NCBI GenBank assembly: GCA_027371725.1
Contig: DAHXMN010000002.1
Span: forward strand, 1-32,678
From: Candidatus Woesearchaeota archaeon
GTDB taxonomy: Archaea > Nanobdellota > Nanobdellia > Woesearchaeales > UBA525
Length of the DNA: 32,678 bases
Direction: 5' to 3'
The notes beneath the pieces were generated by a model. That model was not told the origin of the DNA, did not search any database, and saw only the letters and a list, made by a program, of their open reading frames with translations. Below are positions 12,624 to 29,031 of the stretch, one piece after another; the stretch's first letter is position 1; every line of letters starts with the position of its first letter. The translations under genes and the position numbers were made by a program.

Positions 12624-13103
12624 TTACTGCTCCACCGAAGAGGTGATGCTGCCGGACGCGGTGTGCGTCACGTCCTCGCCGTTCTTCGTGTAGATGACAT
12701 TCACGTTCGCCTTGAACTTGTCGCCGACATTGGCCGCGGCGGTGTTCGTGCAGCTGAAGGTGAAGACCTGCTTCTGGCCGTTCGCGAGGGAGATCTGCGT
12801 GGTGTTCGCGATCTGGCAATCGACGGCGCTGCCGAGGTTCGTGGTGTTGACGTCGGTCTCGTTGATGGTGATCTGGTCGCCGATGTTGTTGATGATGCCG
12901 AACGTCAGCGTCGCGGGCATGCCCGCGGAGACCTTGTACTCGCCCGCGCTGATGCCGCCGGTCATCGTGAAGCTGCTCGGCAGGAACTTGCTCGGGCTGA
13001 GGATGCCGAAGTAGGCGAGGGCGCCGATCGCCGCGAGGACGACGAGGATGGCCCAGCCGTACGTCATCAGGAACTCCATTGCCGCTTGACCCTTTCTCCG
13101 CAT
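12624..13103 (-). CDS. archaeal type IV pilin (class III signal peptide), candidate major pilin
   Basis: MRRKG|QAAMEFLMTYGWAILVVLAAIGALAYF is followed by a beta-rich domain with 2 Cys and several N-x-S/T sequons. GGTGAGGTGA SD lies 5 nt upstream. It has its own TATA (13174-13181) and a CT-rich T-run terminator. Confidence 0.85.
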   Translation of the reverse strand: MRRKGQAAMEFLMTYGWAILVVLAAIGALAYFGILSPSKFLPSSFTMTGGISAGEYKVSAGMPATLTFGIINNIGDQITINETDVNTTNLGSAVDCQIANTTQISLANGQKQVFTFSCTNTAAANVGDKFKANVNVIYTKNGEDVTHTASGSITSSVEQ

Positions 13104-13374
13104 GTGTTTCACCTCACCTGTTTCCTCAGGCTTATGGAGAGGAAATGGTTCTATCCAATCCCCCATTGGAACATTTATAAAGCTTTCGCTTCGATGGGCC
13201 GCGGTGAAAATCTCGTTTCACTCAGGCACCGGCTTCTCGCCAGTCATTGCCCCCTTCGCTGCATCGACGTTCCCGGAAGAGGGCCGACCAGGGTCTCTTC
13301 GCTTCGTTCTTCGCCATGCCCGACCTTGACCGGCGCCCTACGCTTTTTCCGCGGCCATGACGGCACGAAGCGGC

Positions 13375-14865
13375 CTACGCGAGTGAGCCGAGCGTCGCGG
13401 CGAGGGCGGCCGCGGCCAGGAAGTAGATCGTGAGGCTCACGACGAGGAAGATCGGGAGGTTGCGGATCCCGTCCTTGACGTTGCCCTTCCGGATGACGCT
13501 CACGATGGAGGCGCTCATGATCGCGCTGACGCTGAGCATCATCACGCTGAACCAGCGGAAGTTCGTCACCATCTGCGCCGACGTCTTGATGTTGAGCTTG
13601 AGGAAGCCGTTCGATGCGCCGCCGAGGTTGAGCGAGCCGGTGATCTTCACGATGATGGTGAGGAGCGTCGTGGCGAGGGCGAAGAGCAGGGGCGCCATGA
13701 CGATCGAGGCGAAGGTGATGAAGATCGCGTACGTCGCGACGTTGGCGCTCATCTCCTTCTTGAGGATCTTCGTCTCCTGGATGTCCAGCGCGATCTTGCT
13801 GAGCAGTTCGGCGATCTCGCCGCCTGCGGCCATCCCCTCGAGCAGGATGCTGACGCTGCGCCGCAGGATGAGGGAATCGTACCGCTCAGTGAAGCGGATG
13901 AGGCTCTCGCTCAGCTCCTCGCCGGCGAGCGTCTCCTTCGCCACCTCCTCAATCTCCTTGGCGAGCACGCCGAAGTTCGGCCGGACGGCGAACCAGAGGG
14001 CGCGGTCGATGGGCATGCCCGCGCTGATGTTCGCGCTCGCGAGCTGGAGGAAGTCGGGGAGCACCTCCTCGAGCTCCTTGGTGCGGCGGTAGATCCTGAT
14101 GTCGAGGTAGACATAGATGACCATCCAGGTGAAGAGGTAGAAGAAGGCGAAGACCGCGGTCCAGACGCCGAGGTAGAAGAGGAGCAGGCCCATCGCCGGC
14201 TTCCCGGCGAGCGCAGCGAGGATGAGCGTGGAGAGCGTGAAGAGGGCGGTGACCGTGAACGCGATGTAGAAGACGGCGCGTTTCACGTCGTCCGGGTCGG
14301 CGGTGTAGCCCGCCTTGAGCAGCAGGGCGGAGAGCATGCGCTTCCGGTACTGCGCGGTGCGCCGTTCCTTGCGCTTCCGCAGGGTCTCCTGGCGCTTCAG
14401 CCTCCGCCGCGTGCGTTCCAGCGCGGCGTCGTCGGCCGCCGTGCGGCGTTCCATCTCTCTCGAATGGCCGACAGCGGCTTCCGGCCCAGGCCTCTCAGCA
14501 GGATCCGCGGAGGGTTTCTCGGCCGGCTTCCGAACGGGTTTCTTGATCGCTTCCCCGGTCGGTTTCACGACGGGCCTCTCGGCCGTCTCTTCAGCAGGTT
14601 CCTTGCTGGACGCTGCCGCACGGTCGCGGCGGAAGAGCCGAGTGAACGAAAAACGACTGCGAGGATCCTTTGAAGGAGGAGAAGGGAGGGACGGAGGAAC
14701 TGGTGAGGAAGGGGAGGGGAGGGAGGAGAGGGATTCTGGAGGCGTGGAGACGAGAGGCGCGGAAGCGCGAGAGGGCTTCTTCGGCCGAGGCTTGCGCGTC
14801 GTCACGGCCTTCTTCGCAGCCAGAGGTTCTTCCGCAGTCCGGACTCCCTTCTTCGTCGCCACCAT
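13375..14865 (-). CDS. T2SSF-domain platform protein (TadC/EpdK-like) with ~195-aa disordered N-terminal extension
   Basis: Single T2SSF-type domain (LPDFLQLASANISAGMPIDRALWFA and ILLEGMAAGGEIAELLSKIA) flanked by TM helices. The N-terminus is P/S/K/R/E-rich. I chose ATG 14865; the track start GTG 14874 is possible. Confidence 0.8.
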   Translation of the reverse strand: MVATKKGVRTAEEPLAAKKAVTTRKPRPKKPSRASAPLVSTPPESLSSLPSPSSPVPPSLPSPPSKDPRSRFSFTRLFRRDRAAASSKEPAEETAERPVVKPTGEAIKKPVRKPAEKPSADPAERPGPEAAVGHSREMERRTAADDAALERTRRRLKRQETLRKRKERRTAQYRKRMLSALLLKAGYTADPDDVKRAVFYIAFTVTALFTLSTLILAALAGKPAMGLLLFYLGVWTAVFAFFYLFTWMVIYVYLDIRIYRRTKELEEVLPDFLQLASANISAGMPIDRALWFAVRPNFGVLAKEIEEVAKETLAGEELSESLIRFTERYDSLILRRSVSILLEGMAAGGEIAELLSKIALDIQETKILKKEMSANVATYAIFITFASIVMAPLLFALATTLLTIIVKITGSLNLGGASNGFLKLNIKTSAQMVTNFRWFSVMMLSVSAIMSASIVSVIRKGNVKDGIRNLPIFLVVSLTIYFLAAAALAATLGSLA

Positions 14866-14914
14866 GAATCGCACCAGTCTACCGTGTTTAGTTATTATTC
14901 CCGTTCGTTCCTCC

Positions 14915-15709
14915 TCACATGTCCATCGGCGGTCTGCTGCTCCTGATCACCGCGAGGAACATGAATTGGATGAACCCGATGAAGAGCGCGATGAAGAGGT
15001 AGGCGAAGAGGCTGAGGTTCAGCCCGAGGAAGCTCGTCAGGACGATGAGCATGATGGTGCCGAGGCTCGGCACGATGATCGCGATCATCATGTAGAACAT
15101 CGCCATCGGGTTGAGCTTCCGGCCGTACTCCTTCACCGCGATCTGCTGCTCCCGGACGACCTGGTCGAAGACGGCGGAGAGCGCGGTCGTCACCTCGCTC
15201 CCCGTGCGCATCGAGTTGAGGAGCTGCCAGAGCATCTTCCGCAGGTCGGGGCTTGGCGTGACGATAATCATCTCATTCAGCGCGTCCTCCATCGGCGTGC
15301 CGAGGTCGACGCGCTCGACCAGCTCCTGGAAATAGATGCCGATCGTCTCGTAGTTCTTCGCGAGGTTGCGGAACGCCTGGTAGAGCGGCACGCCCGACTC
15401 GAGCTCGATGATGAGGAACCGGCCGGCGTAGACGATCTCCTTGTTGATCTCCTTGTTCAGCTTCTGGATGCGGAGGTCGACGTACCCCATGAGATAGAGG
15501 AAGGCGAGGAAGAAGACGATCGGGAAGAAGAGGAAGACGATCGGCTTCGGGATGAAGAGGAAGATGACGATGGAGAGGCCGAAAGCGAGGACGAAGCTCG
15601 TGAACGCGGTCTTCCGGACGTAATACTCCGGCGTGTCCGGCAAGCGCGCCTGGAGCAGCTTCAGCTTCAGGCCGGGGACGCTGCGCGCGATGATCTTGTA
15701 GAGCTCCAT
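14915..15709 (-). CDS. T2SSF-domain platform protein (TadB/EpdJ-like)
   Basis: Single T2SSF-type domain (YFQELVERVDLGTPMEDALNEMI and LLNSMRTGSEVTTALSAV) plus TM helices. I chose ATG 15709 with an upstream GGAGGA/GAGG; the track start GTG 15733 lacks an SD. Confidence 0.8.
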   Translation of the reverse strand: MELYKIIARSVPGLKLKLLQARLPDTPEYYVRKTAFTSFVLAFGLSIVIFLFIPKPIVFLFFPIVFFLAFLYLMGYVDLRIQKLNKEINKEIVYAGRFLIIELESGVPLYQAFRNLAKNYETIGIYFQELVERVDLGTPMEDALNEMIIVTPSPDLRKMLWQLLNSMRTGSEVTTALSAVFDQVVREQQIAVKEYGRKLNPMAMFYMMIAIIVPSLGTIMLIVLTSFLGLNLSLFAYLFIALFIGFIQFMFLAVIRSSRPPMDM

Positions 15710-15755
15710 GCGAACTGCCTCTTCCTCCGGCACGGACGGGCGCGACGTCCCGCGT

Positions 15756-17399
15756 CTACGGCGCCGGCCGCGGGGGCGCCGCGACGCCCTTCGGCTCGCC
15801 CTGCTCGCTCTCCAGGAACGGCTGGTCCGCCTTGATGAAGCGGAACAGGTTCTCCTTGTCCGTGTAATACTCTGCGATGACGCGGCCGACGGCGTCGACG
15901 GTGAAGATGCTGTGCTTCACCAGGTAGTCGATGACGCGGCGCTTCTCCGCGATCTCCGCGGCCACGTCCTTGTCGGTGAGGCCGGTGTAGAGCTTCAGCG
16001 TCTGGAGGAAGCTCCTGCTCTTGGCGACCTGGACGAGCCGGTCCTTCTTCGGGTCGTACTGGAGGATGACATTGAAGCCCGCGTTCGGGAGCGTCTCCGC
16101 AATCTGGAAGGTGCGGCGCTGGCCGCTACGCCGGTTACGGAACTGGACGATGATGAGCGAGATCGCCGGCAGCATGACCTTCGGCACCTCGATCGGCGGA
16201 TTGGTGAGACGCTCGATCGCCTCCTCCGCGGTGTTGGCGTGGAACGTCGCGTAGACGGAGTGGCCGGTGTGGATCGCTTCGAAGAGCGTCTCCGCCTCCC
16301 TCTTGCGGCGGACCTCGCCGACGATGATGCGGTCCGGCCTCATACGGAGGCTGTTGACGAGGAGGTCGCCCATGGATATCTCCCCCTTGCCCTCGGCGTT
16401 CGGCAGCCGCGTGTTGAGCGGCACCCAGTGGAGGAACCGCGGCAGTTGGATCTCGCGCGTGTCCTCAATGGAGAGGACGCGCTGGTTCGGCGGGAAGAAG
16501 TTCGCGAAGCAGTTGAGCGCGCTCGTCTTGCCGGAAGCGGTGCCGCCCGCGATGATGGCGCTCATCTCGTAGTGCATCGCCATCCAAATCCACGCGGCCG
16601 CCTCGCTGCTGATCGTGCCGTACTTGACGAGCCGGGTGATCGTCCACGGGTCGCGGCTGAACTTGCGGATGGTGATCGTGTTGCCCGCGGTGCTGATCGG
16701 CATCAGGGTCGCGTTGACGCGGTCCCCCTCGTTCAGGTGGGCGTCGAGCAACGGCTCCAAGACGCTGATCTGCCGGCCGACCTTGCGTCCGATGAGCGCG
16801 GCGTAGTGCCTGATCTGCTCCTCGTCCTTGAGGAAGACCGTCGTCTTGAGCCAGCCGTGCTTCTTGTGGTAGACCCAGACCGGCTCGTCCGACTGGTTGA
16901 TGACGATCTCCTCGAGCTGCGCGTCGTCCATGAGGAGCTCGATGTTGCCGAGGCCGAGGGAACGCGCGATGAGGTAGCTGGTGAGGAAGCCGCTCGTCTC
17001 CTCGTCGGCGTCCGGGAAGTGCTTGCGGATCAGGTCGGCGATCGTGTCGGCGAAGACGCCCTCGACCTGGCCGGTCTTCTTCGCGTCGAGGATGTCCACG
17101 ACGCCGAGGCTCACCTGCTTGATCAGCTCCTGGCGGATCTTCTCGAGCAGGAATTCGGTCGTCTTGGAGATGGAGCTGATCCGCACCTCGTAGATCGGGA
17201 CGAACTCGCCCTTCACCTTCTGGACGGTGATGATGATGGGGATGTCCTTCGACTTGTACTCGTACTGGTCGATGACCGCCTCCTTGACGGCGGCCTTCGG
17301 GTTCCGAGAATCACGGGAAGAAGCCTTGCGGACCGCTTTGCGGGGACGAGAAGAGTTCGCCTTCTTCCGCTTCACAGTAGACTTCGCGCCGCGTGCCAA
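15756..17399 (-). CDS. type IV filament assembly ATPase (FlaI/TadA/VirB11 superfamily)
   Basis: Walker A AGGTASGKTS, Asp box VLSIEDTREIQLP, Walker B PDRIIVGEVR, His box HTGHSVYATFHANT. TTG start is preceded by GAGGTGA at 7 nt. Basic ~40-aa N-terminal tail. Confidence 0.9.
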   Translation of the reverse strand: MARGAKSTVKRKKANSSRPRKAVRKASSRDSRNPKAAVKEAVIDQYEYKSKDIPIIITVQKVKGEFVPIYEVRISSISKTTEFLLEKIRQELIKQVSLGVVDILDAKKTGQVEGVFADTIADLIRKHFPDADEETSGFLTSYLIARSLGLGNIELLMDDAQLEEIVINQSDEPVWVYHKKHGWLKTTVFLKDEEQIRHYAALIGRKVGRQISVLEPLLDAHLNEGDRVNATLMPISTAGNTITIRKFSRDPWTITRLVKYGTISSEAAAWIWMAMHYEMSAIIAGGTASGKTSALNCFANFFPPNQRVLSIEDTREIQLPRFLHWVPLNTRLPNAEGKGEISMGDLLVNSLRMRPDRIIVGEVRRKREAETLFEAIHTGHSVYATFHANTAEEAIERLTNPPIEVPKVMLPAISLIIVQFRNRRSGQRRTFQIAETLPNAGFNVILQYDPKKDRLVQVAKSRSFLQTLKLYTGLTDKDVAAEIAEKRRVIDYLVKHSIFTVDAVGRVIAEYYTDKENLFRFIKADQPFLESEQGEPKGVAAPPRPAP

Positions 17400-17437
17400 C
17401 CGACCCTCACCTCTCTGACCAGCCCCGGGAGAGGCTG

Positions 17438-17509
17438 TTTATAAACGTTTCGACAGCTTGCGCGAAGGAAAAACGCGGCGCGAAGAAAGAGCGACAAAAC
17501 GTTTATAAT
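17438..17509. promoter_or_regulatory. divergent promoters sharing an inverted 12-nt AAACGTTTATAA module
   Basis: TTATAAACGTTT at 17439-17450 is the exact reverse complement of AAACGTTTATAA at 17497-17508. One faces the ATPase operon and the other faces the phosphatase remnant. Confidence 0.5.
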
Positions 17510-17524
17510 CGTGCGACACAGTCA

Positions 17525-17826
17525 ATGGCCTCGGGGCGGCGAGGAACACGTATTCTGTCCACGGACCGACGATGGATAACGAACAGGGCCTCGCCGCGGG
17601 CTGGGCGCCGGGAAAACTCCCGGAAACGGGAAGGAAACGGGCACGAGAACTGGGACGAACCGTCTCTCACGAGGTCTTCGATGCGGTCTTCTGCTCCGAC
17701 CTGAAGAGGACGCTCGAATCCGCGGAGCCCGGTTCCGCGGATAAATATAGAATCATCCAAGATAAGAGATTGAGGGGAATGCGATTAAGGGATTGTGAGC
17801 GTTCCGTGCGACGGATGATTTCCTGA
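17525..17826 (+). pseudogene. decayed histidine phosphatase (phosphoglycerate-mutase family) remnant
   Basis: HGPTMDNEQGLAAGWAPGKLPETGRKRARELG...FDAVFCSDLKRTLESAE matches the N-terminal third of the family. The catalytic Arg of RHG is Val. The plausible N-terminus (MASGRRGTRIL, ATG 17525) is in another frame. Conserved G/W/G residues of the next motif read RGMRLRDCER. The frame stops at 17826, well short of full length. Confidence 0.45.
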
Positions 17827-17887: not shown

Positions 17888-19042
17888 TCACTCCTTGCTG
17901 CCGATGAGGTCGCGGAGCTTGCCCAGCTCATCCTGGAAGAGCGAACGCTTCTTATCGTACTCCTTGTAGCCCTTCTCGAGCTCACCCATCTGCTTCTTGA
18001 TGTCCGTCTCCTTGCTGAGCAGGTTGAACGCGATCGCCTTCTTCTTCAGGCCGTCGAGCTCGTGCGCCATCTCCGCCTTGTGCTGCTCGAGGCCGTTGAG
18101 CAGCTTCTCCGTCTCCATCCGCTTCTTGAAGAACGTGTCGAACTTGTCCACGATGCCTTGGGCCTGTTTCTCATAGGTGGTGATCGTGCCCTTCCGCTCG
18201 CGGACCTTCTCGAGGATGGAGTCCTGCACCTTGAGTATCTTCTCGCCGTGCTCCTTGGACGCCTTGATGAGCGGGTCGAGCTCCTCCTCCTTCTTGCGTT
18301 GGATGTCGTGCTGGATCGTGTCCGCGATCTCGTGGAGCCGTGCGAGCCGGTCCTCCTCGTCGGTGATGGACTTCCCCGCGTTGGCGATCTCGCCGTCGAT
18401 GGCGTCGACCACCTCTTTCAGCGCGGCCAGCCGTTTCTGGAGCGAGGACTCCTTCTCCTCCATCGTCTTTGTTTCCTCGCGTTCCTGGGTGAGCTTCTCC
18501 TCCTCGCCCTTGATCTCGTGGAGGAGCTTCTCGTACCGCTTCTCTTCCGCGTAGAGCTTGCGGTGGACGTCGTCCACCATCTTCTCGTAGTCGACCTTCT
18601 GCTGGATGATGTCCTGGTCGATGGACTGCTTGAGGGACTCGTAGTGCTTCAGCTCGTCGAGCTCGTGCTTCACTTGGTCGATCTCGTCCCCGATGTCGCC
18701 CTTGAGCGAATTGTAGGCGCGCTTGATGTCCTCGAAGCCGGACGTCTCCTTCTCGAGCTGCTTGAGCGTCGTGTCGACCTTCCGGACGAACGCCTCTTTC
18801 TTCTGCTCGTACTCCTTGGATTTCTTCTCGACCTCGCGCTTCGTCAGCTTCTTCTCCACCAGGTAGGTCTTGCTGAGGCTGTACTCGATGCCGATAAGGC
18901 CTTCCTCGTCGAGGAACTCCGCCCACTCGCGCACCACGTCCTTGGAGACGCCGAGCTCCTTCGAGGCGTCCTCGAGCGCGATCTTCTTCCGTTCGGAGAC
19001 GATCTCCACGAGCTTGTCCACGCCGGTCTCGATCTTCGCCAT
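17888..19042 (-). CDS. winged-helix N-terminal domain + ~320-aa coiled-coil protein
   Basis: MAKIETGVDKLVEIVSERKKIALEDASKELGVSKDVVREWAEFLDEEGLIGIEY is wH-like. The remainder is continuous E/K/L/D-rich and heptad-like. TATA 19065-19072 lies 23 nt upstream of ATG 19042. The track ORF start 19141 crosses the promoter. Confidence 0.75.
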   Translation of the reverse strand: MAKIETGVDKLVEIVSERKKIALEDASKELGVSKDVVREWAEFLDEEGLIGIEYSLSKTYLVEKKLTKREVEKKSKEYEQKKEAFVRKVDTTLKQLEKETSGFEDIKRAYNSLKGDIGDEIDQVKHELDELKHYESLKQSIDQDIIQQKVDYEKMVDDVHRKLYAEEKRYEKLLHEIKGEEEKLTQEREETKTMEEKESSLQKRLAALKEVVDAIDGEIANAGKSITDEEDRLARLHEIADTIQHDIQRKKEEELDPLIKASKEHGEKILKVQDSILEKVRERKGTITTYEKQAQGIVDKFDTFFKKRMETEKLLNGLEQHKAEMAHELDGLKKKAIAFNLLSKETDIKKQMGELEKGYKEYDKKRSLFQDELGKLRDLIGSKE

Positions 19043-22474: not shown

Positions 22475-22804
22475 TCAGAACCGCACGAGGTCGCCTTTCT
22501 TGAGTGAGAGCAGGCCTGCTTTCGTCTCGATCGCGTAAGAGAAGCGGGCTCGCGGCCGGTATGCGGCGAAGGGGCGGAAAGAGCATTTCGCGTCGACGAC
22601 GCGCTTCCGTTCGTCGAGAAAATAGACGTCGATTGTCCAGAAGACGAAGAGCATGTGGAACCCGACGTTGACCTCGCGGCCGAAGTCGAAGACGTACGCG
22701 ACGCCGTCCCGCGGCTTGCGGAACATCAGGCCCCAGCCCTGCGTCCACCCGTTCCGGAAGAAGATGAGGGCGGGCGTCCTGCCACGCGTGTCGGTGAGGA
22801 CCAT
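22475..22804 (-). CDS. DUF192 family protein
   Basis: GWGLMFRKPRDGVAYVFDF and FHMLFVFWTIDVYFLDERKRVV fit the DUF192/COG1430 pattern. ATG 22804 has a weak TATA (ATAAAAAC) upstream. The track ORF's 74-aa extension was rejected. Confidence 0.7.
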   Translation of the reverse strand: MVLTDTRGRTPALIFFRNGWTQGWGLMFRKPRDGVAYVFDFGREVNVGFHMLFVFWTIDVYFLDERKRVVDAKCSFRPFAAYRPRARFSYAIETKAGLLSLKKGDLVRF

Positions 22805-23114
22805 GATTGTCCTGGCGGAAGGGCGGTTTTTATGGTTTGTGATTGCGCCTCTGCCGCGGATTCGCTCCGCGGTCTTGCCGGCTGCTCGCGTCTCGCTGTG
22901 CTGATTGAGAGACCTCCTCCCCGTAGGTCCTCGGTAGCGGGACGCTACCGGGACCACGGCGAGCCTCGTGCTCGCCTGTGGGGGCAACCCCCCGTCGGCC
23001 TTCGCCGTTCTTTTCTTCACGCTCACCCTTTGGCCGGCGAGACATCATCCGCGATGAATCCTCGCTCGAAGAAGGGAGGCGGGACGCTGCATCTGTCGAG
23101 GGCGGCTGTTCCGC

Positions 23115-24095
23115 TCAGCAGATGGTCGCGTTGAGCTTGCTGAGGCCGTAGTCATGCGCCGGGTCGTCGTAGTGCGTCGCGTCCAGCTTGAACCAGGAGG
23201 GGAGCGGGCTTCCCTCCGTCGGGCAGTAGAGCGTCGCGTTCCGTCCGGAGAAGTAGTACGCGTCCACGGTGGAGCGGTCGGTGTAGACCGGGAGCCCTTG
23301 CGCGTTGAGGTCGTCGAGATTGATGATCGAGGCGATGCCGTACTTCGACGTGCCGTTCAGGTCGCCCTGGAGGCGTTGGAGGTAGCTCGGCGCGTACGGG
23401 TCTTCGCGGTAGTAGCCCTGCTGGATCTCGTCGTCCAGGTTCGCGGTGTTGTTCCCCGTGACGAGGTCGGAATTGTTGTAGGGGCTCTCCCGGATCGTGT
23501 TCGGCAGCTTGCCGTCGGTGGAGACGCTGTACGCCGGGTCGCGGAGGTCGAGGATCGAGACCTCCGTGGTGAACCATTTCTGGTAGTCCCAGCGGGCGAG
23601 TCCGCGCGTGTCCGTCACGTTGACGGTCATGAGGAACGAGACGTCGATGCTCCATGGCGTCGATTGGTTGAGCGCGATGTCCTGCACGGTGACGTTGAGC
23701 GCGATCCCCTGCTGCCGCGCCTCGTCGTTGACGCGGCCGAGGTAGTCGCCGAAGGTGCTGTTCGTGAGGATGTCGTACGGCTGCCCGTCGACCGTGCCGT
23801 TCATGAACGCCTCGATGAAGAGCGGCGTCGCGTTCGTGACGTACACGCCTTCCTGACTGGTGTACTGCTCGATCGCGATCAGGCTGCGGAAGCCCGCGAT
23901 GTACGTCGCCCGCGGCACGTCGCCGTGGAAGTCGCTCAGGAAGTCGCTCATCGCCTGGATGCGGGTGACGACGCTCCGGCTCCGCTCCTCGCCCGTCGGA
24001 AGGGTCCGCGCGTACATGATGGCGAGGAGGATGGCGACGATGAGGAGCGCGGAGATGAGGTAGACGACGCCCCGCCGTCCGGGAAACGCGGTCAT
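23115..24095 (-). CDS. prepilin-like (pseudopilin) protein, 326 aa
   Basis: MTAFPGRRG|VVYLISALLIVAILLAIMY, then an N-glycosylation-sequon-rich extracellular domain. ATG 24095 overlaps the upstream stop (ATGA). The 997-aa track ORF is a composite running out of frame through the VWA gene. Confidence 0.75.
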   Translation of the reverse strand: MTAFPGRRGVVYLISALLIVAILLAIMYARTLPTGEERSRSVVTRIQAMSDFLSDFHGDVPRATYIAGFRSLIAIEQYTSQEGVYVTNATPLFIEAFMNGTVDGQPYDILTNSTFGDYLGRVNDEARQQGIALNVTVQDIALNQSTPWSIDVSFLMTVNVTDTRGLARWDYQKWFTTEVSILDLRDPAYSVSTDGKLPNTIRESPYNNSDLVTGNNTANLDDEIQQGYYREDPYAPSYLQRLQGDLNGTSKYGIASIINLDDLNAQGLPVYTDRSTVDAYYFSGRNATLYCPTEGSPLPSWFKLDATHYDDPAHDYGLSKLNATIC

Positions 24096-26791
24096 CGGTC
24101 CACCTCCAGCGCCGCTTCCGTCGGTCCCCAGAGGTAGGGCACCTGCTGGACGAGCGTCACGATGATCTCGAGGTCCTGCTGGTCGAGGTTGACGAAGACG
24201 CGGCCGTCGCCGTTCAGGTCGAGCTGCTGGAGGATGTGGTAGACGCCGTAGTCGTACGCGTCGTTCGGGTCGTAGCTGCCCGTGCCGTGGCTCGCGTTCG
24301 TGTACGTGCAGTTCTTCGCGCCCGTGTAGGTCGAGGGGATGGAGAAGTTGAGGAAGTGGCCGTCCTCGAACTCCACTTCCCAGTTGCACCCTTCCGTCGT
24401 CGAGAGGACGGCGCTCCGGGGGATGGTGCTGTTGATCATGCCCGTGTAGATGATGGAGTTGTTGCCGCTGCAGTTCGTCGCGTTCCCCGAGTTGTCGGCG
24501 ATCATCATCCTGATCGTGTTGTTCGTCCCGTTGAGGAGCGCGGCGGGGATGGCGACGAGGAACGGGTCGCCGAGCGTGACGAAGTCGGCGTTGTAGTCGC
24601 TCAGGTTGTAGACCGGCTGGCCGTTGACCGAGAGGAAGGTCGTCCAGTACGGGCCGGAATAGCTCGTCACTGCTGCGTCGGTGATCCTGAGGCCGGGCGG
24701 GATGGCGAGCGTCGTCGTGCAGTTCGCGAACTGCGGCGTCTCGAACTTCACCTGGATCTCGTTCGGCGACGGCGGCGTGACGATGGGGGTGTAGTTGAAG
24801 CTGAGCGTGCTGCCCGCGAGGAGGTGGCTCGGGGCGTAGCTTCCGTTGATGACGAGCGTCTGCGCGGAGAAGTTCGCGATGAGGAGTATCTGGTCGCTGA
24901 TGTTCTGGTATATCTGTTCCAGCTGCGAGACGTTCGTCGCGTCGTAATAGAGGGAGGAGTTGCACGCGACCTGCTGCAGCAGCGTCTTGTTCGCGTCGGC
25001 GCCGAAGCCGATGGTGAAGACGGTGATGTTGTAGTTGTCGCACGCGTTCTGGCCGGCGTCGATGGTGGACTGCGGCGCGCCGGCGGTGTCGGCGGTGCCG
25101 GCGTAGTCGTCGAAGTTGTCGCAGCGGTAGTTCGGCTGTCCGTCGGTCATCACTATCATGAACCGCTTGTTCACGGAGCCATTGAGCATGTTCTTGGCGC
25201 GGTTGATGCCGCAGCAGATGCACGTGCCGCCGTTCGCGGTGTAGCCGTCGATCTGCGTGCCGAGCGCCGCCTGGTCGGTGGTGAGGTCCATCGCGTTCGT
25301 CACCTGGTCGTTGAAGCTGTCGAGGCCGACGCGGTCGCCCGAGACGTTGAGGATGATGGACGCGGCGAGCTTGTCCGCGGACTGCGCGATCTGGAGCTTG
25401 GTCCGGTTGCAGATCGTCGCGGTCGGCGTGGAGTAGCTGCCGGCCGTCCAGCCGGGGTTGCAGGCGCCGCACTCCTGGTTGCTGCAGCTCCCCGGGTAGG
25501 CGCACTGCAGGTAGTAGGAGAAGAACCACCAGCTGCACTTGTACTTGCAGAGCAGGCCGGTGTAGTTCTCGCCGCAGTCGCCCATGCTGCCGGAGACGTC
25601 GGTGACGAGCGTCGTGTCCGCCGGCTGCCCCGCCTGGACGAACGTGACGTTGGTGAAGTTCGTCGTGCCGAGGCGGAGCGGGATCGTCGCCGGCGCCCAG
25701 GAGAGGTTGTGCGCCTCGAGGATGATGTTCTGGGTCGCGTTGCTGCCCGGGCTGCTGAAGACCGTCTGGTTGCCGATCCTGAGGAAGACGGTGTAGTTGC
25801 TGTCGTACGAGAGGTTGAGGTACCAGTCGGTGATGATGCCTGGCGCGTAGAACGAGTCGTACAGGTTGATGATCCCGTCGATCTGCGGGAAGGCGTACTG
25901 GCCCCAGCCGGTCGGCGTCGTCGAGTCCTGGAACGCGTCGGTGAGGTAGCTGAGCTTGAGGTAGCCGCCGGCCACGTAGGAGTCGGCGAGCGCTCCCCGC
26001 TCGACGAGGGTGATATTGTTCATGCCGGGGACGATGTCCCCCTTGCAGCCGGTGAGGTTCCACGCCTGCACGGTCATCAGCGTGGCGTCGCTGGTGAGCG
26101 TCGTGCACGCCGCGCCGTTGACGAGGAGGTCGAAATCAGCGACGGTGTCGAGCTGCGCGGTGATGTCCGTGATCGCGGTCGCGTTGACGTCCGAGGGGAC
26201 GGGGCCGAGCTGCACGGTGATGTTGCCCTGGCCGGTGAAGCCGCCGAAGTACGCGATGACAAAGCTCTTCTTGTCCCTGATCCGCTTCAGGTAGGCGGTG
26301 CTGGTGCTGCCGGAGAGCGCCTCTCCCTGCTGGATGCCGGTGATCATGCGCTGCGCCGCCGCCCGTTCGCCGATGGCGCCGCTCCGGTTCTGCTGGAACA
26401 GCGCATCCCCGCCCATGCTGAGCGTGACGCCGACATCGCCGGGAAGGAGGCCCTGGAGCGCGTCGCGGCTGAGGTTGACGGCGAGCCCGGTCTGGTTCGT
26501 CGCCCAGAGGTCGCCGATCGCCTGGAGGACGGACACGGAAGGGTCGGGGATGGTGCCGTTGCTGACAAGCTGCTGGGCGAGCGTGCTGTTGAGATCGCCC
26601 GCCCTGATCGTCGAGAGAGCGAGGAGCGCATCCTGGGCGTAGTGGCTCGTCTGCGTGAACGGCGGCGCTTCCGCACGGAAATGGAGCGCGACGACCAGGG
26701 CGGCGAAGAGGAGGAGGCTGGCGAGGAGCGCGTCGAGCGTGAAGAGGATGGCCCGCCGGCCGCCGTGCCCTGTCCTCGCGTTCGTGGTCAT
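24092..26791 (-). CDS. prepilin-like N-terminus + von Willebrand factor A domain protein, 899 aa (TadG-like architecture)
   Basis: N-terminus GHGGRRAILFTLDALLASLLLFAALVVAL. MIDAS LVTDVSGSMGD, RFMIVMTDGQPNY and ITVFTIGFGADAN. A Cys-rich insert follows the MIDAS motif. Many sequons. GGTG SD upstream. Confidence 0.85.
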   Translation of the reverse strand: MTTNARTGHGGRRAILFTLDALLASLLLFAALVVALHFRAEAPPFTQTSHYAQDALLALSTIRAGDLNSTLAQQLVSNGTIPDPSVSVLQAIGDLWATNQTGLAVNLSRDALQGLLPGDVGVTLSMGGDALFQQNRSGAIGERAAAQRMITGIQQGEALSGSTSTAYLKRIRDKKSFVIAYFGGFTGQGNITVQLGPVPSDVNATAITDITAQLDTVADFDLLVNGAACTTLTSDATLMTVQAWNLTGCKGDIVPGMNNITLVERGALADSYVAGGYLKLSYLTDAFQDSTTPTGWGQYAFPQIDGIINLYDSFYAPGIITDWYLNLSYDSNYTVFLRIGNQTVFSSPGSNATQNIILEAHNLSWAPATIPLRLGTTNFTNVTFVQAGQPADTTLVTDVSGSMGDCGENYTGLLCKYKCSWWFFSYYLQCAYPGSCSNQECGACNPGWTAGSYSTPTATICNRTKLQIAQSADKLAASIILNVSGDRVGLDSFNDQVTNAMDLTTDQAALGTQIDGYTANGGTCICCGINRAKNMLNGSVNKRFMIVMTDGQPNYRCDNFDDYAGTADTAGAPQSTIDAGQNACDNYNITVFTIGFGADANKTLLQQVACNSSLYYDATNVSQLEQIYQNISDQILLIANFSAQTLVINGSYAPSHLLAGSTLSFNYTPIVTPPSPNEIQVKFETPQFANCTTTLAIPPGLRITDAAVTSYSGPYWTTFLSVNGQPVYNLSDYNADFVTLGDPFLVAIPAALLNGTNNTIRMMIADNSGNATNCSGNNSIIYTGMINSTIPRSAVLSTTEGCNWEVEFEDGHFLNFSIPSTYTGAKNCTYTNASHGTGSYDPNDAYDYGVYHILQQLDLNGDGRVFVNLDQQDLEIIVTLVQQVPYLWGPTEAALEVDR

Positions 26792-26883
26792 TCGTGCAGC
26801 ACCGTTCCGTCAGTCTTCATCGTTTATCGTTTATCGTCGTTCAACACCCTCGTCGTTCAATGTCCGCTCCGCACATCTCATTC

Positions 26884-28029
26884 TCATCGGTTCTCCCACA
26901 CCGTGACCGTCATGATGAGGATGCGTCCTTGGTAGGCGACGAGCCGCCGGACGGCGACGAGGTGCTGGACGCCCGTCGAAGGGATGGCGACCGCGGCGCA
27001 GTCGGCCGAGTCCTGCAGGCTGGTCGCGTTGAGGCGGTCGGCGGTGTAGTTGAGGAGCGGCTCGCCGGTCCCGTTGATCGTACCCGCGAGGCCGCCCAGG
27101 TAGTAGACGTCGCCGTCCCCGTCCGTGAAAGCGGCGGCGTAGTCCTGCTCCGCGGTGGACGCGACGAGCGACTCGTAGCGCGACTCGTTCGTGAAGGAGA
27201 TCATGGAGGCCGTCGCCGGGATGGAGCTGATGGTCTGATTGGAGAGGTTGAGGAACGTGTCGTTCACCCCCGTCCCGGCCGCGCTCGGCGAGAGGTTCGC
27301 GGGCGTGAGGTTGAGGCCGTAGAGCTCCGGCAGGCTGACGTTCCCGATGAGGAAGAGGGTGCCGCCGCGCTGCACGAAGTCCTCCAGGTCCGCGGCCTTC
27401 TGGGCGTCGTACGGCGGGGTCGTCGCAGAGAGCCGCGGCTCCTCCATGACGATGAGGTCGTAGTTCGTCCGGTCGGTGAGGAGCGCTCCCAGCCGGTCGC
27501 CCTCATAGACTGTCGCGTTGAGCGCCTCCATCGCGGGGAGGAGCTGCTCGCCGCCGGCGTCGTACGCGTAGTACGCGGTCCGGACCGGCCGCCGGAGCGG
27601 CGTCTGCTGCGCGCTCACCGACGGGCTGCCGATGAAGCAGGAGGCGCCAATCGGCACGTAGGAGCCGTCCCGCTCCTGGAGCGTGATCGCGTACTCGTAC
27701 CTCGTGTCGAGGAGCGCCTTGCTGCCGTCGTAGTCGCCCTGGGCGAGCGCCGCCAGGTATCCTGCCTTGCGCATGCTCAACCCGTCGTCGGTGAGGAGGC
27801 CTGCGGAGATGACGTCATCGCTGCGCCATGAGGGAGGGTAGCCCGCGCCCATGAGCCGCTGGGAGACGGCGTCCGCGCTCCGCGCCACGTCGCTGAAGTC
27901 GTCCGGGACGAGGACGGTCTTGACGAGCGTGGAGAGGACGACGAGGAGCGCGAAGAGGAAGAGGAGGAAGCCGACGGTGTAGTCGAAGGTCCAGACCTGC
28001 CCCCGCCGCGCGGCCCTCGTCCTCGTCAT
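26884..28029 (-). CDS. prepilin-like protein, 381 aa, with possible GATase1-like (ThuA/BatD-type) middle domain
   Basis: MTRTRAARRG|QVWTFDYTVGFLLFLFALLVVL. The middle segment NYDLIVMEEPRL...DLEDFVQRGGTLFLIGN resembles non-catalytic class-I amidotransferase-like folds (weak, by eye). GAGGAG SD lies 6 nt upstream. Confidence 0.7.
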   Translation of the reverse strand: MTRTRAARRGQVWTFDYTVGFLLFLFALLVVLSTLVKTVLVPDDFSDVARSADAVSQRLMGAGYPPSWRSDDVISAGLLTDDGLSMRKAGYLAALAQGDYDGSKALLDTRYEYAITLQERDGSYVPIGASCFIGSPSVSAQQTPLRRPVRTAYYAYDAGGEQLLPAMEALNATVYEGDRLGALLTDRTNYDLIVMEEPRLSATTPPYDAQKAADLEDFVQRGGTLFLIGNVSLPELYGLNLTPANLSPSAAGTGVNDTFLNLSNQTISSIPATASMISFTNESRYESLVASTAEQDYAAAFTDGDGDVYYLGGLAGTINGTGEPLLNYTADRLNATSLQDSADCAAVAIPSTGVQHLVAVRRLVAYQGRILIMTVTVWENR

Positions 28030-28161
28030 GGTCTTCTCCTCGACACCGTATTCAGCTCGATAGGATGTACGGAATATAAATAATGGAATATATATTTTTA
28101 AATAATTTTTATTAAATATATCATTGAAAATGTATCTTTTATAATGTATTGTTGCCGGGCA

Positions 28162-28554
28162 TCATGGTTGCGTGATGATGATGGAGCCGCCGATGGTCTT
28201 GATGGTGTCGCTCCCGATGGCGAAGGAGCCGCTCACGGGCGGGATGTCGCGCGAATAGGTCGTGCCGTCGTCGAAGGAGAGGGTGAGCGTCGAGGCATCG
28301 TTCGCGATCGCGTACTGCCTGCCGTCCAGCTCGTCGGGGAGGAGGATGGTGCGCCGGTAGCCGTCCTGCACGTTGGAGGCGAGGAGGAGCTCCTGCTGGA
28401 GCGAGGAGGCCTCGTCCTGGAGCGCAGCGAGCCCGGTCTGCCGGGAGGCGTACTCGAGGTAGGCGGCGACGAGGATGAGGACGACGGCGAAGAAGACGAA
28501 GGCGAGCATCACCATGAAGGAGAACTCGACCGCGATCTGTGCCGCGCGCGCCAT
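28162..28554 (-). CDS. minor pilin-like protein (class III signal peptide), 130 aa
   Basis: MARAA|QIAVEFSFMVMLAFVFFAVVLILVAAY. The start lies 3 nt after the stop of the upstream pilin-like gene. Confidence 0.8.
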   Translation of the reverse strand: MARAAQIAVEFSFMVMLAFVFFAVVLILVAAYLEYASRQTGLAALQDEASSLQQELLLASNVQDGYRRTILLPDELDGRQYAIANDASTLTLSFDDGTTYSRDIPPVSGSFAIGSDTIKTIGGSIIITQP

Positions 28555-28557
28555 CGT

Positions 28558-29031
28558 TCAGCCCTCCGTCACGTTGACCCGGCCGTCCGGGAGGGCGGTG
28601 ACGACGAGCGTGTGCGGCCCCTTCGTGATGCCGACCGAGCCGGTGAGATTGGCGGCGCTCCACCCGTTCTGGTCGTAGTCGCCGTGGGACGAGGAGACAG
28701 TGAACGTGACCGACGTCCCTTGGAACGAGACGGACTCCACATCGGCCGGGAGGTCGACGGTGATGGTGCGTGAGCTCGGCGCGCCGAGGTAGTAGACCGT
28801 GTCCGCGGCGTCGACGATCTGCGTGGCCGCCCGCTCGATCGAGGCGCTCGTCACCTGGTCCTGGAGCTGCGCCGTCTGGGTGAAGTAGAGGATGATCAGC
28901 GGCAGGGCGAGGAGGAGCGCGAAGCCCATGACGAAGAGGTACTCCATCGAGACCTGTCCGCGGCAGGAGAGCGGACGGCGGACGCGGAAGGGCGCGCTGC
29001 GTTGCCGACGGAGAAGCCCACCTCTTTCCAT
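28558..29031 (-). CDS. minor pilin-like protein (class III signal peptide), 157 aa
   Basis: ...RPLSCRG|QVSMEYLFVMGFALLLALPLIILYF. TATA TATTTAAA at 29054-29061 lies 23 nt upstream of ATG 29031. The pre-cleavage segment is unusually long (26 aa), so the true start could be internal and non-ATG. Confidence 0.75.
   Translation of the reverse strand: MERGGLLRRQRSAPFRVRRPLSCRGQVSMEYLFVMGFALLLALPLIILYFTQTAQLQDQVTSASIERAATQIVDAADTVYYLGAPSSRTITVDLPADVESVSFQGTSVTFTVSSSHGDYDQNGWSAANLTGSVGITKGPHTLVVTALPDGRVNVTEG

Follow-up and report, generated by a model that had tools for sequence, protein, structure and literature searches.

We interpret this region as the gene set with which a tiny archaeon of the Woesearchaeota (DPANN) builds a type IV pilus, biogenesis machine and subunits alike, most similar to the "Epd/system 1" pili with a split platform and Q(+1) pilins, and give this reading a probability of roughly 80%. 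The window, i.e. the whole 32,678-nt stretch of DNA analyzed, contains a complete-looking type IV pilus gene cluster. An ORF and start-codon check verified 12 of 12 genes, all on the minus strand, at the coordinates proposed in an earlier sequence-only reading or a few codons off. Their order is g1-g2-g3-VWA-g5-(DUF192)-cc-ATPase-F1-F2-pilin, where cc denotes a winged-helix/coiled-coil protein, and here a gene for a Cys-rich protein lies between DUF192 and cc. At the gene level, the interpretation is based on an ATPase with its catalytic motifs, a split T2SSF pair, a pilin with its own predicted promoter, five further pilin-like proteins, and synteny across related genomes.

Motor, platform and pilin-like proteins

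The FlaI/TadA-family secretion ATPase (547 aa, TTG start; 15756..17399, minus strand; Pfam T2SSE, 2e-32) begins with a K/R/S-rich tail of ~40 aa and carries the four motifs that the sequence-only reading had listed, namely Walker A (GGTASGKT, residue 285), the Asp box (IEDTREI, 311), Walker B (IIVGEVR, 358) and the His box (GHSVYATFH, 379). Compared to PDB sequences, it scores 248 bits against afGspE, 197 against FlaI, 176 against CpaF and 79 against VirB11, and its closest relative by sequence thus appears to be afGspE, an archaeal secretion ATPase outside the archaellum. The platform is encoded by two genes with one T2SSF domain each: F1 (264 aa; 14915..15709, minus strand; Pfam 1.9e-17) aligns to positions 26-253 of the 484 in the UpsF profile, corresponding to the N-terminal half of a canonical FlaJ/UpsF, and F2 (496 aa; 13375..14865, minus strand; Pfam 6.9e-14) aligns to positions 275-458 of 484, corresponding to the C-terminal half, so that these two half-size proteins jointly equal one FlaJ/TadC. 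A Pro/Ser/Lys-rich extension of ~190 aa precedes the T2SSF domain of F2, and the basic disordered N-terminal tails of both the ATPase and F2 are kept in relatives.

The putative major pilin (159 aa; 12624..13103, minus strand) has an N-terminus, MRRKG/QAAMEFLMTYGWAILVVLAAIGALAYFG, that is nearly invariant across 43 orthologues, and profile and PDB sequence searches returned no Pfam family and no PDB sequence relative. Its ATG is preceded by a Shine-Dalgarno-like GGTGAGGTGA and by a BRE/TATA-like motif, GAAAGCTTTATAAA (13174..13187, minus strand, exact match), and a T-rich tract lies 3' of the stop codon (about 12570-12620), in agreement with the earlier suggestion that this gene has its own promoter and terminator. 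A second exact copy of the motif, GAAACGTTTATAAA (17438..17451, minus strand), precedes the TTG start of the ATPase by ~40 nt, the chance expectation of this search being 0.29 for up to 2 mismatches. The pilin gene and the ATPase operon are each preceded by their own predicted BRE/TATA motif.

Five additional genes, all on the minus strand, encode pilin-like proteins. The first, g1 (157 aa; 28558..29031; N-terminus ...CRG/QVSMEYLFVMGFALLL), weakly matches DUF7289 (7e-5) and Class_IIIsignal (0.015) in Pfam, and its orthologues carry [KR][GAS]Q/VSMEY in 23 loci. Starting 3 nt past the g1 stop, g2 (130 aa; 28162..28554; MARAA/QIAVEFSFMV) has a conserved [KR][GA]Q/IAxEF N-terminus and a weak match to DUF7266 (1.7e-4), a family also matched by 9 orthologues. 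The match of g3 (381 aa; 26884..28029; RRG/QVWTFDYTVGFLLFLF) to DUF7287 (8.4e-6) is slightly below the cut-off; its N-terminus is kept in orthologues, and its C-terminal domain is DUF4350/DUF7408-like. The fourth protein is a VWA adhesin (899 aa; 24092..26791; RRA/ILFTLDALLA; Pfam VWA 3.9e-14), in which an intact MIDAS motif (DVSGS, residues 398-402) and 39 N-x-S/T sequons fit an extracellular location; a ~60-aa insertion containing 9 Cys comes after the motif. Finally, g5 (326 aa; 23115..24095; RRG/VVYLISALLIV), whose start overlaps the VWA stop (ATGA), matches no Pfam family, as is true of 34 orthologues, and its AF2 model (pLDDT 86.7, pTM 0.77) yielded no significant PDB fold match, none having E < 0.007. 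All six pilin-like N-termini consist of [KR][GA] followed by a hydrophobic helix, as had been noted for the five besides the pilin. Meanwhile, the G/QxxxE[FY] signature previously attributed to these N-termini holds for the pilin, g1 and g2 only: in g3 the pattern is Q..D, and there is no Q in the VWA protein or in g5. The Class_IIIsignal family matches 23 of 65 g1-g3 orthologues, and class III-type N-termini are conserved. Overall, the matches and motifs support the type IV filament assignment first proposed, from the FlaI/TadA-type ATPase and split platform to the Q(+1)...E(+5) pilins and the pilin-like VWA protein, and the locus is neither an archaellum nor a VirB11 system.

Conservation of the locus and its accessory genes

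The gene order of the locus, with DUF192 as an optional member, is found again in dozens of DPANN assemblies. The ATPase is followed by two T2SSF genes in 57/60 loci, the pilin is present in 34/50 and g5 in 36/54, the VWA N-terminal region is conserved in 29/44, and g1-g3 are present in 22-24/42 (for g3, in 24 of the 42 loci whose flanking sequence suffices). A cluster common to this many related genomes suggests a lineage-typical adhesion machine rather than a one-off oddity. The window genes flanking the locus encode Rpo7, S24e, aIF2-gamma, FtsZ, DNA ligase, Orc1/Cdc6, Nop10 and aIF2-alpha, and the locus adjoins aIF2-alpha even in genomes with 57-60% g5 identity and 48% GC. This retained position argues against a recent island, and the description of the locus as an "accessory island" in the sequence-only reading is not supported.

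The same reading had linked three further genes to the motor genes, and the outcome differs between them. The linkage is clear for cc (384 aa; 17888..19042, minus strand), which lies before the ATPase in 54/65 loci when surveyed from the ATPase side; starting from cc, the ATPase comes next in 39/43 loci, or about 40/43 once L143 is counted, a locus flagged by the script merely because its cc and ATPase ORFs overlap. Hence, cc is a conserved partner tightly linked to the motor genes. The AF2 model (pLDDT 75) places three long helices after an N-terminal winged helix, consistent with the original description, and Foldseek matches are exclusively to winged-helix proteins. Weak HTH_DeoR matches were obtained for 17/35 homologues, and the family defined by the winged-helix part comprises, at 50% identity, at least 276 clusters, mostly of ~380 aa. 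Sequons, Cys and TM segments are all absent from cc, which fits a cytoplasmic location.

For DUF192 (COG1430; 109 aa; 22475..22804, minus strand; Pfam DUF192 2.6e-10, NCBIfam PRK03760 2.3e-15), the linkage is limited to a sub-clade. The 5' end of this ORF is at either 22804 or 23026, with the same Pfam match (2.6e-10) either way, and neither a signal peptide nor a TM segment was found in the protein. The third gene encodes a secreted protein (19188..22403, minus strand; ATG at 22403) of exactly 1071 aa and 98 Cys, matching the earlier estimates of ~1071 and about 98, with a Sec-type signal peptide (..PAHA/MC) rather than a class III one. Its N-terminal modules are variable, and its conserved C-terminal ~190 aa consist of a Pfam CarboxypepD_reg domain and a Cys-rich module. 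Comparison with a strain sharing 95.5% nucleotide identity in the ATPase and F1 genes gives a dN/dS of 0.32 for the Cys-rich protein vs 0.04-0.09 for cc, ATPase and F1, and the N-terminal part of the Cys-rich protein is rapidly evolving compared to its neighbors.

These patterns bear on the strongest alternative, which we consider possible although unlikely: that the core is indeed a pilus but the Cys-rich and DUF192 proteins are unrelated passengers in permissive, rearrangement-prone spacers. In its favor, DUF192 occurs between g5 and cc in just 9/54 loci (ATPase side) and 17/46 (cc side), i.e. in the closest relatives. Similarly, the full-length Cys-rich protein has a single orthologue, its gene is missing from L002 and L003, the nearest relatives of full length, in which DUF192 is directly followed by cc, and proteins sharing just its short Cys-rich modules sit outside type IV pilus loci. 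In the closest strain, the Cys-rich/cc gene pair has a different upstream neighbor and lies between 2-Hacid_dh and an intact His_Phos_1 gene, and a shortened His_Phos_1 relic is present in the 488-nt cc-ATPase spacer of the window. However, DUF192 holds its position between g5 and cc across relatives with ATPase identity down to about 69%, and about ten DPANN type IV pilus loci carry the C-terminal domain of the Cys-rich protein, at several positions and once in the identical slot between DUF192 and cc (L084-L086), in a genome with no more than 60% g5 identity and 48% GC. For the Cys-rich protein, the proposed linkage is thus maintained for the C-terminal domain and not for the whole protein. 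The passenger explanation overlaps in part with the pilus interpretation, and the His_Phos_1 relic can be likened to such passengers.

Relation to known filament systems

The closest counterpart is the Epd pilus of Methanococcus maripaludis, designated "clade 1" (Makarova 2016, PMC4858521) or "system 1", the latter reported in DPANN (Sivabalasarma & Albers 2026, bioRxiv 10.64898/2026.04.22.720090). Both loci combine one secretion ATPase with two separate platform genes, about five minor pilin-like genes, a large adhesin-like protein, and G/Q...E pilin N-termini of the Class_IIIsignal/DUF361 type. Unlike the Epd locus, the woesearchaeal one includes no dedicated EppA-type peptidase or MinD/FleN ATPase, its adhesin contains VWA instead of DUF2341, its 159-aa major pilin has a globular part where the ~70-aa Epd pilin is headless, and the winged-helix/coiled-coil, DUF192 and Cys-rich genes are extra. 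DPANN type IV pilus islands with two platform genes and unrecognizable pilins are described in general terms in passages of PMC6393860 and of the 2026 preprint, and the original statement that the accessory gene set is not explained by known loci was therefore too strong. Specifically, the DPANN "dark matter island" (Makarova, Wolf & Koonin 2019, PMC6393860, Fig. 2A) shares the FlaI-like ATPase and TadB/TadC-like genes, along with surface proteins and signal-peptide proteins matching no known pilin family, and, as presented there, almost certainly represents a locus of this very kind. The available text on this island does not discuss a winged-helix/coiled-coil partner, DUF192, or the Cys-rich C-terminal-domain family.

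More distant similarities were found with a haloarchaeal PilB4-type/"system 2" locus (Halobaculum halophilum plasmid NZ_CP058531, 55.8-64.2 kb), in which the ATPase and platform genes are followed by five pilin-like genes (DUF7287, DUF7288, DUF7261-like, DUF7266 and DUF7289). Here, g3, g2 and g1 and their orthologues weakly match DUF7287, DUF7266 and DUF7289, all below Pfam cut-offs, and no similarity was detectable for g5 or the VWA N-terminal region. This locus differs by its single 679-aa platform gene, its 989-aa ATPase with large extra domains, and pilin N-termini without the Q...E[FY] motif. Bacterial Tad/Flp systems share the split platform and an ATPase clearly related to CpaF (1.2e-50), and TadG displays the same fusion of a pseudopilin to a VWA domain, an architecture that does not imply homology. 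Yet the ATPase scores only 192 against the TadA-family model (cut-off 373), no Pfam match to Flp or TadE was obtained, and TadZ, TadV and secretin genes are absent from the locus. By analogy only, the T4aP minor-pilin/PilY1 tip complex and T2SS GspH-K offer sets of four or five low-abundance pilin-like proteins, some without E5, which are thought to prime assembly and sit at the tip, with PilY1 providing a large VWA-containing adhesin; no sequence or fold match to these was found.

Another reading is that the machine is a short pseudopilus, T2SS- or bindosome-like, that secretes or displays surface proteins instead of a long adhesive pilus, with the Cys-rich protein as cargo. We regard this as improbable: there are indeed five minor-pilin-like genes to one major pilin, the locus includes the gene of a large secreted protein, and NCBIfam profiles hint at BasC for the pilin (1.3e-4) and BasE for the ATPase (1e-46), but the scores are far below cut-offs (21.8 vs 260 and 160 vs 1000, respectively) and no substrate-binding proteins with class III signals were found. 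The presumed cargo has a Sec signal and is missing from most loci, and the strong-looking predicted promoter of the pilin is as for an abundant filament subunit. Less probable still is a DNA-uptake (competence-type) pilus, in which incoming DNA would be handled by cc together with the K/R-rich cytoplasmic tails present on the ATPase and on F2. Competence depends on type IV pili in ultrasmall Saccharibacteria, according to passages of PMC10187176, the cc domain resembles DNA-binding winged-helix regulators, and the basic tails are kept in relatives. Nevertheless, the locus encodes no ComEC/ComEA-like channel or DNA-binding pilin, winged-helix domains also serve protein contacts or transcriptional control, and a VWA/MIDAS tip protein suggests adhesion. 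Lastly, a degenerate archaellum is barely conceivable and fails on gene content: although the archaellum FlaI model is the top NCBIfam match of the ATPase (5.4e-80), the score (269.6) is under the 550 cut-off and afGspE outscores FlaI, the platform is split in two, the pilins have Q(+1), and the window genes, flanks included, comprise no archaellin genes and, as previously noted, no FlaH, FlaF, FlaG or FlaC/D/E genes.

A candidate adhesive pilus

In the pilus model, subunits would be cleaved after [KR][GA] by a prepilin peptidase encoded elsewhere. The window contains no A24 peptidase, in line with the sequence-only reading, since F1 and F2 are the sole multi-TM ORFs matching genes, and a crude regex and TM screen identified no prepilin peptidase within 10 kb in 80 related loci. 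The ATPase hexamer would dock on an F1/F2 heterodimer and drive the 159-aa pilin into a filament, for which g1, g2, g3, g5 and the VWA protein may form a priming or tip complex. Similar to bacterial PilY1 and minor pilins, or to TadG, such a complex could present a metal-dependent (MIDAS) VWA adhesin. From its genomic linkage, cc may be a cytoplasmic partner of the ATPase, acting as a scaffold, a positioning factor or a DNA-binding regulator of the locus, and DUF192 an accessory factor confined to a sub-clade. Likewise, the Sec-exported Cys-rich protein could be a disulfide-stabilized surface protein, whose conserved C-terminal domain would attach it to the pilus or the cell surface while the fast-evolving modules at the N-terminus contact a partner cell. 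The overall function would be attachment to surfaces or host cells, and cc, DUF192 and the Cys-rich protein would represent three undescribed accessory components of an Epd-like, split-platform adhesive pilus.

Gene content and conserved gene order

The gene set named by the sequence-only reading is real: all genes lie on the minus strand, and Pfam and NCBIfam confirmed one T2SSE domain, two single T2SSF domains, and VWA, DUF192 and CarboxypepD_reg domains. The row begins with five pilin-like genes, namely g1 (28558-29031, 157 aa), g2 (28162-28554, 130 aa), g3 (26884-28029, 381 aa), the VWA protein (24092-26791, 899 aa) and g5 (23115-24095, 326 aa), the ATG of which overlaps the VWA stop. Next come the DUF192 protein (22475-22804, 109 aa), a secreted Cys-rich protein carrying CarboxypepD_reg (19188-22403, 1071 aa), in which a direct count bore out the 98 Cys first reported, and a winged-helix (wH)/coiled-coil protein, here called cc (17888-19042, 384 aa). 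The motor genes encode an ATPase (15756-17399, 547 aa), whose TTG start codon is shared by relatives, and two half-size platform proteins with a single T2SSF domain each, F1 (14915-15709, 264 aa) and F2 (13375-14865, 496 aa), which are the only multi-transmembrane ORFs of the window that match genes; the pilin gene (12624-13103, 159 aa) closes the row. Housekeeping genes flank the locus (Rpo7/E', S24e, cytidylyltransferase, aIF2-gamma, FtsZ, an HTH protein, DNA ligase, Orc1/Cdc6, Nop10 and aIF2-alpha). The window has a G+C content of ~62% and hence contains many spurious ORFs, and Rfam at gathering thresholds and tRNA scans returned nothing in it. Two plus-strand ORFs without a Pfam family were also seen, one of 191 aa with an N-terminal membrane anchor and several Cys (31946-32521), the other encoding a soluble protein of 363 aa and lying between the genes for DNA ligase and Orc1/Cdc6 (10137-11228).

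An ATPase-based scan with one genome per species yielded 80 related loci, labelled almost exclusively Woesearchaeota, Nanoarchaeota or Pacearchaeota, with Micrarchaeota and Aenigmatarchaeota as remoter relatives and some TPA records wrongly labelled "Methanosarcinales". The top match, 98% identical, came from Ca. Woesearchaeota isolate A_NAN_12. Gene order was then compared by tblastn and jackhmmer with twelve window proteins, counting loci with enough flanking sequence. The sequence-only reading had asked whether the whole order is kept in relatives, and across DPANN-type loci it is: g1-g2-g3-VWA-g5-(DUF192)-cc-ATPase-F1-F2-pilin is shared widely. Two T2SSF genes come after the ATPase in 57/60 loci and cc comes before it in 54/65, while g5 is present in 36/54, the N-terminal region of the VWA protein in 29/44, g1-g3 in 22-24 of 42, and a downstream pilin in 34/50. 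A second, independent scan, with cc as the query against metagenome contigs, placed the ATPase immediately downstream in 39 of the 43 informative loci; one more (L143), the fortieth, was flagged solely because the cc and ATPase ORFs overlap, and the exceptions were one locus with an inverted motor operon and two with a pilin but without an ATPase. Upstream of cc, the same scan found g5 in 31/46 loci.

In six Micrarchaeota or Anstonellaceae loci (L066, L067, L071-L074), the distance from the ATPase start to the first T2SSF gene is 2.4-3.7 kb vs ~1.6 kb in the window, leaving space for up to ~2 kb of additional coding sequence, and cc-like matches are found either upstream at a greater distance or on the other strand. 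This altered placement of cc indicates that the architecture differs outside Nanoarchaeota-type lineages.

The winged-helix/coiled-coil protein and the variable genes around it

The sequence-only reading had pointed to three unexplained genes between the pilin-like genes and the motor genes, and these fared differently. Judged by the frequency of its linkage to the ATPase in both scans, cc belongs to the conserved parts of this type of pilus. A winged helix takes up its first ~65 residues, with weak HTH_DeoR matches in 17 of 35 homologues, and three long helices follow (AF2 pLDDT 75). The model retrieved only wH proteins in Foldseek (TFE-alpha, MarR/ArsR-type regulators, S25e), none at E < 0.007, and at the sequence level cc matched nothing in the PDB beyond coiled-coil noise and, weakly, an LrpA-type HTH. 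The protein has no transmembrane segment, Cys or N-x-S/T sequon. The 100 homologues retrieved are all unnamed or misnamed "chromosome segregation ATPase", and those with a source label are nearly all of DPANN type; the wH part alone recovered at least 276 clusters at 50% identity (E <= 1e-10), mostly of 377-390 aa. In the remoter loci L060, L069 and L070, the wH is a separate ~150-aa protein followed by one of 400-500 aa. A coiled-coil family, arCOG07564, is known from haloarchaeal subclade 4F (PMC4858521).

The DUF192 protein, small and without a signal peptide, is linked far less often, in only 9/54 loci between g5 and cc in the ATPase-based comparison and in 17/46 upstream of cc in the cc-based scan. 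It occupies this slot in the closest relatives (ATPase identity of at least ~69%); in the others it is absent or lies at another place. Our literature search found no link of DUF192/COG1430 to pili, and tblastn with DUF192 against plasmids gave no match.

Of the Cys-rich protein, it is one domain that recurs. A single full-length orthologue was found, the 1233-aa P0102 of strain A_NAN_12. Between the two strains, cc (98.4% amino-acid identity, dN/dS 0.04), the ATPase (98.9%, 0.04) and F1 (97.7%, 0.09) are nearly identical; the Cys-rich protein is 76% identical over aligned columns, with a dN/dS of 0.32, a higher dS, an indel of 120 aa and a middle region that diverges strongly. Its last ~190 residues are conserved and comprise CarboxypepD_reg and a Cys-patterned module ending ...K..Y.G.P. 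This C-terminus is 35% identical (E 9e-26) to that of a 668-aa protein with 62 Cys, DUF4215 and CarboxypepD_reg in the identical DUF192/cc slot of loci L084-L086, and jackhmmer detected the domain in about ten DPANN T4P loci, including short versions of ~300 aa upstream of g5 (L055, L056, L060, L070). All copies have Sec-type signal peptides. A second Cys-rich CarboxypepD_reg copy was observed upstream of g1 in L084-L086 (JGI contigs, 1554-5393), with lengths of 543+556, 918 and 1279 aa among samples that share an identical g5 protein, which indicates fast module turnover within one population.

The surroundings of cc are plastic. The 488-nt spacer between cc and the ATPase holds, on the plus strand, what is left of a truncated His_Phos_1 (phosphoglycerate-mutase-like) gene (17509-17823; Pfam 8.4e-14, covering positions 6-87 of the 194 in the profile); at the position of this relic, A_NAN_12 (L081, JACWAN010000022) has an intact 163-aa His_Phos_1 gene. 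In that strain the Cys-rich protein and cc genes form a pair between a 2-Hacid_dh gene and the His_Phos_1 gene, and the ~125 nt after ATPase-F1-F2 resemble the g5-DUF192 spacer of the window, not its pre-pilin sequence. The relic and these rearrangements mark the spacers around cc as sites of gene gain, decay and rearrangement, and such plasticity favours an alternative for the variable genes, namely that the Cys-rich protein and DUF192 are unrelated passengers in rearrangement-prone spacers of a pilus locus. On the other side stands the recurrence of the Cys-rich C-terminal domain in T4P loci, outside of which we found proteins having only short Cys-rich modules in common; from these sequence comparisons, an association of the domain with T4P loci is suggestive but not proven.

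The 310-nt g5-DUF192 spacer also contains a GC-rich, hairpin-forming element of ~130 nt (22914-23040, minus strand), 79.5% identical to the end of JACWAN010000064 (L001 4369-4492), where it comes after F2. Compared with shuffled sequence, the spacer folds better (z = -3.26), and the element gave only a weak C/D-box sR30 match in Rfam (E 0.041). Repeat searches found no MITE-like repeats to account for the rearrangements.

The chromosomal position of the locus is itself stable. In locus L003, aIF2-alpha and Nop10 precede g1; in L084-L086 (48% GC, 60% g5 identity), S27e, aIF2-alpha and PAC2 are followed by a variable Cys-rich surface-protein gene and then g1, and the pilin closes the locus next to enolase. 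This shared position indicates that the locus is ancestral to the lineage. The initial view of an accessory island inserted between informational genes thus falls, with both position and composition conserved.

Relation to known type IV filaments

The locus encodes what defines an archaeal T4P: a PilB/FlaI-family ATPase, a T2SSF platform and class III-type subunits. The ATPase matches Pfam T2SSE (2e-32), and the Walker A, Asp box, Walker B and His box motifs, read from the sequence beforehand, were all located in it. Among PDB proteins it is closest to afGspE of Archaeoglobus fulgidus (2OAP, 248 bits), ahead of FlaI (197), CpaF (176) and VirB11 (79). It falls below the curated cut-offs of the FlaI (NF058587, 269.6 vs 550 bits), TadA-family (TIGR03819, 192.5 vs 373), VirB11 (TIGR02788, 143.7 vs 250) and BasE models. 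The two separate platform genes were confirmed by Pfam and by alignment to the 484-position UpsF model, of which F1 covers positions 26-253 and F2 275-458, making them two halves of one canonical archaeal platform protein. Exact copies of the BRE/TATA-like GAAANNTTTATAAA occur twice only in the window, at 13174-13187 before the pilin gene and at 17438-17451 before the ATPase operon (chance expectation 0.29 even with two mismatches allowed), which suggests that the abundant subunit and the motor are separate transcription units. Long, apparently disordered K/R/S/P-rich tails were observed at residues 1-40 of the ATPase (17280-17399) and 1-190 of F2 (14300-14865), with comparable basic ATPase tails in relatives L003, L004, L010 and L012; these cytoplasmic tails are unusual for FlaI/TadC-type proteins and could possibly mark an interaction surface.

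By inspection, the N-termini of all six pilin-like proteins carry a class III signal pattern (a short basic leader with [GA] at -1, followed by a hydrophobic helix), conserved in orthologues. The pilin N-terminus has [KR][GAS]Q|AAMEFLMTYGWAILVV, with Q6, A8, E10, Y15, W17 and A18 invariant in 42 sequences, and orthologue N-termini read Q|VSMEY for g1, Q|IAxEF for g2, Q|VWxxD for g3, KK[GA]|xFFTxDALLA for the VWA protein and KKG|xFFT for g5. The G|QxxxE[FY] signature initially ascribed to these subunits therefore holds for the pilin, g1 and g2, which conform to Q(+1)/E(+5), and fails for g3 (Q at +1, D at +6), the VWA protein and g5. Pilins of the Q(+1)/E(+5) type (DUF361/Class_IIIsignal) are reportedly, after Szabo et al. 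in 2007, EppA-type substrates. The absence of an A24 peptidase and of archaellum accessory genes from the window was upheld, and a screen for transmembrane segments and GxGD found no A24 peptidase within 10 kb in the 80 related loci; in one Micrarchaeota genome, an A24-like gene lies distant from any T4P genes.

Class_IIIsignal matches 23 of 65 g1-g3 orthologues, among which sub-threshold matches to DUF7266 (9), DUF7287 (7) and DUF7289 (4) recur. No Pfam family was found for g5 (34 orthologues) or for the N-terminal region of the VWA protein (24 regions), and hhalign of both profiles against haloarchaeal DUF7288 and DUF7261-like proteins gave no match. The g5 model is confident (AF2 pLDDT 86.7, pTM 0.77), with no PDB neighbour in Foldseek at E < 0.007. 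The pilin has a conserved, Cys-containing globular part, and its profile has no Pfam or PDB sequence relative. The VWA protein has a MIDAS motif (DVSGS) and, by direct computation, 39 N-x-S/T sequons; an insertion of ~60 aa with 9 Cys directly follows the MIDAS (residues ~403-465, window 25400-25600), so that the Pfam VWA match begins only at residue 467. Additional pilin paralogues were seen in several related loci, in the g5-DUF192 or cc-ATPase interval or as tandem copies downstream of F2 (L003 7532-7972, L015 8854-9792, L069 11404-12486, L056 9501-10654), hence the copy number and position of the pilin vary. An AT-rich, 132-nt spacer between g2 and g3 (28030-28161) contains several promoter-like matches, which suggests an internal promoter within the minor-pilin gene row.

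A split platform and Q(+1)...E(+5) signals are hallmarks of Epd-type clade 1/system 1 (PMC4858521; bioRxiv 10.64898/2026.04.22.720090), and the window resembles this type in its two platform genes beside the ATPase and in the signals of the pilin, g1 and g2. Unlike the Epd major pilin, which has ~70 aa and no globular domain (arCOG06620), the pilin here has 159 aa, and unlike the Epd locus, with its dedicated EppA, MinD/FleN ATPase and DUF2341 adhesins, the window has no A24, MinD or DUF2341 match. The PilB4-type clade 2/system 2 layout (PMC4858521) is matched by a Halobaculum halophilum plasmid locus (L083), with an ATPase of 989 aa, only one platform gene (679 aa) and the series DUF7287, DUF7288, DUF7261-like, DUF7266 and DUF7289. 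The same DUF families are strong there and sub-threshold in window-type g1-g3 orthologues, and by this measure the minor pilins look remotely related to the euryarchaeal set; in contrast to system 2, the window platform is split, and g5 and the VWA protein have no match to the haloarchaeal set. A bacterial Tad/Flp system was rejected, with TIGR03819 under its cut-off, no Pfam Flp/TadE match, and no TadZ, TadV or secretin. The failed ATPase cut-offs and the gene content of the window likewise exclude an archaellum (no FlaH, FlaJ, FlaF, FlaG, FlaC/D/E, FlaX or archaellins) and a conjugative VirB11/type IV secretion system (no VirB genes).

The sequence-only reading held that known loci do not explain this one, but the kind of system had been noted before: PMC6393860 describes DPANN T4P islands with FlaI, TadB/TadC and unrecognisable pilins, and DPANN loci that have two platform genes are placed in system 1 or subsystem 4A by a 2026 preprint (bioRxiv 10.64898/2026.04.22.720090). 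The window is a typical Woesearchaeota example of this known kind. Undescribed as far as we searched are the wH/coiled-coil partner, which is near-universal, the link between DUF192 and the locus in one sub-clade, and the Cys-rich family, which has a conserved C-terminal domain and an N-terminus that evolves fast; the mixture of clade-1-like platform and signal peptides with system-2-like minor-pilin bodies is likewise undescribed.

Proposed function and significance

Most DPANN archaea have not been cultured, and they are believed to live in attachment to other cells; to our knowledge, how they attach is largely unknown. Starting from the observed parts list of a type IV filament (TFF) machine, from how it is conserved and from where each product is predicted to be located, the processing, polymerisation and tip-complex steps can be sketched on the basis of what is established for T4P, T2SS and Tad. 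An A24 peptidase whose gene lies elsewhere would cut after [KR][GA], and an ATPase hexamer on the F1/F2 platform would polymerise the 159-aa pilin. Products of g1, g2, g3 and g5, together with the VWA protein, would form a priming or tip complex exposing the MIDAS adhesin, analogous to minor pilins with PilY1 or to TadG. More speculatively, cc may be a motor-bound scaffold or regulator, with the K/R-rich N-terminal tails of the ATPase and F2 as candidate contact sites, and the Cys-rich proteins may be surface adhesins, the variable part of which meets the partner cell. The likely function, again at a more speculative level, would be attachment to hosts or surfaces, which fits the episymbiotic lifestyle of cultivated DPANN.

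A broader proposal, to which we give roughly one chance in four, is that Nanoarchaeota-type DPANN pili constitute a distinct TFF subtype, jointly defined by an obligatory wH/cc component of ~380 aa and by a Sec-exported, disulfide-rich family that would combine a C-terminal docking domain with N-terminal host-recognition adhesins. Under this proposal, the cytoplasmic wH/cc protein may act together with the ATPase, for instance as a scaffold comparable to FlaX/ArlX in the archaellum.

That T4P serve adhesion is expected basic biology and not surprising. A groundwater study considered T4P components "missing in DPANN genomes" and used pili to tell CPR from DPANN cells in cryo-TEM images (bioRxiv 10.1101/2020.05.14.094862), a premise that widespread DPANN T4P loci contradict. 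A well-conserved and nearly complete pilus system is standard in Woesearchaeota and relatives, with a conserved gene set now defined as five minor pilins (one of them a VWA/MIDAS adhesin), a pilin with an almost invariant N-terminus and an ATPase partner of wH/coiled-coil type, and with a fast-evolving Cys-rich surface protein family as candidate specificity factor. These components offer concrete targets for metaproteomics, for predicting the structures of complexes and for cryo-ET. If the distinct-subtype proposal is true, the fast-evolving, module-shuffled N-terminal parts of the Cys-rich proteins would set the host range of these episymbionts.
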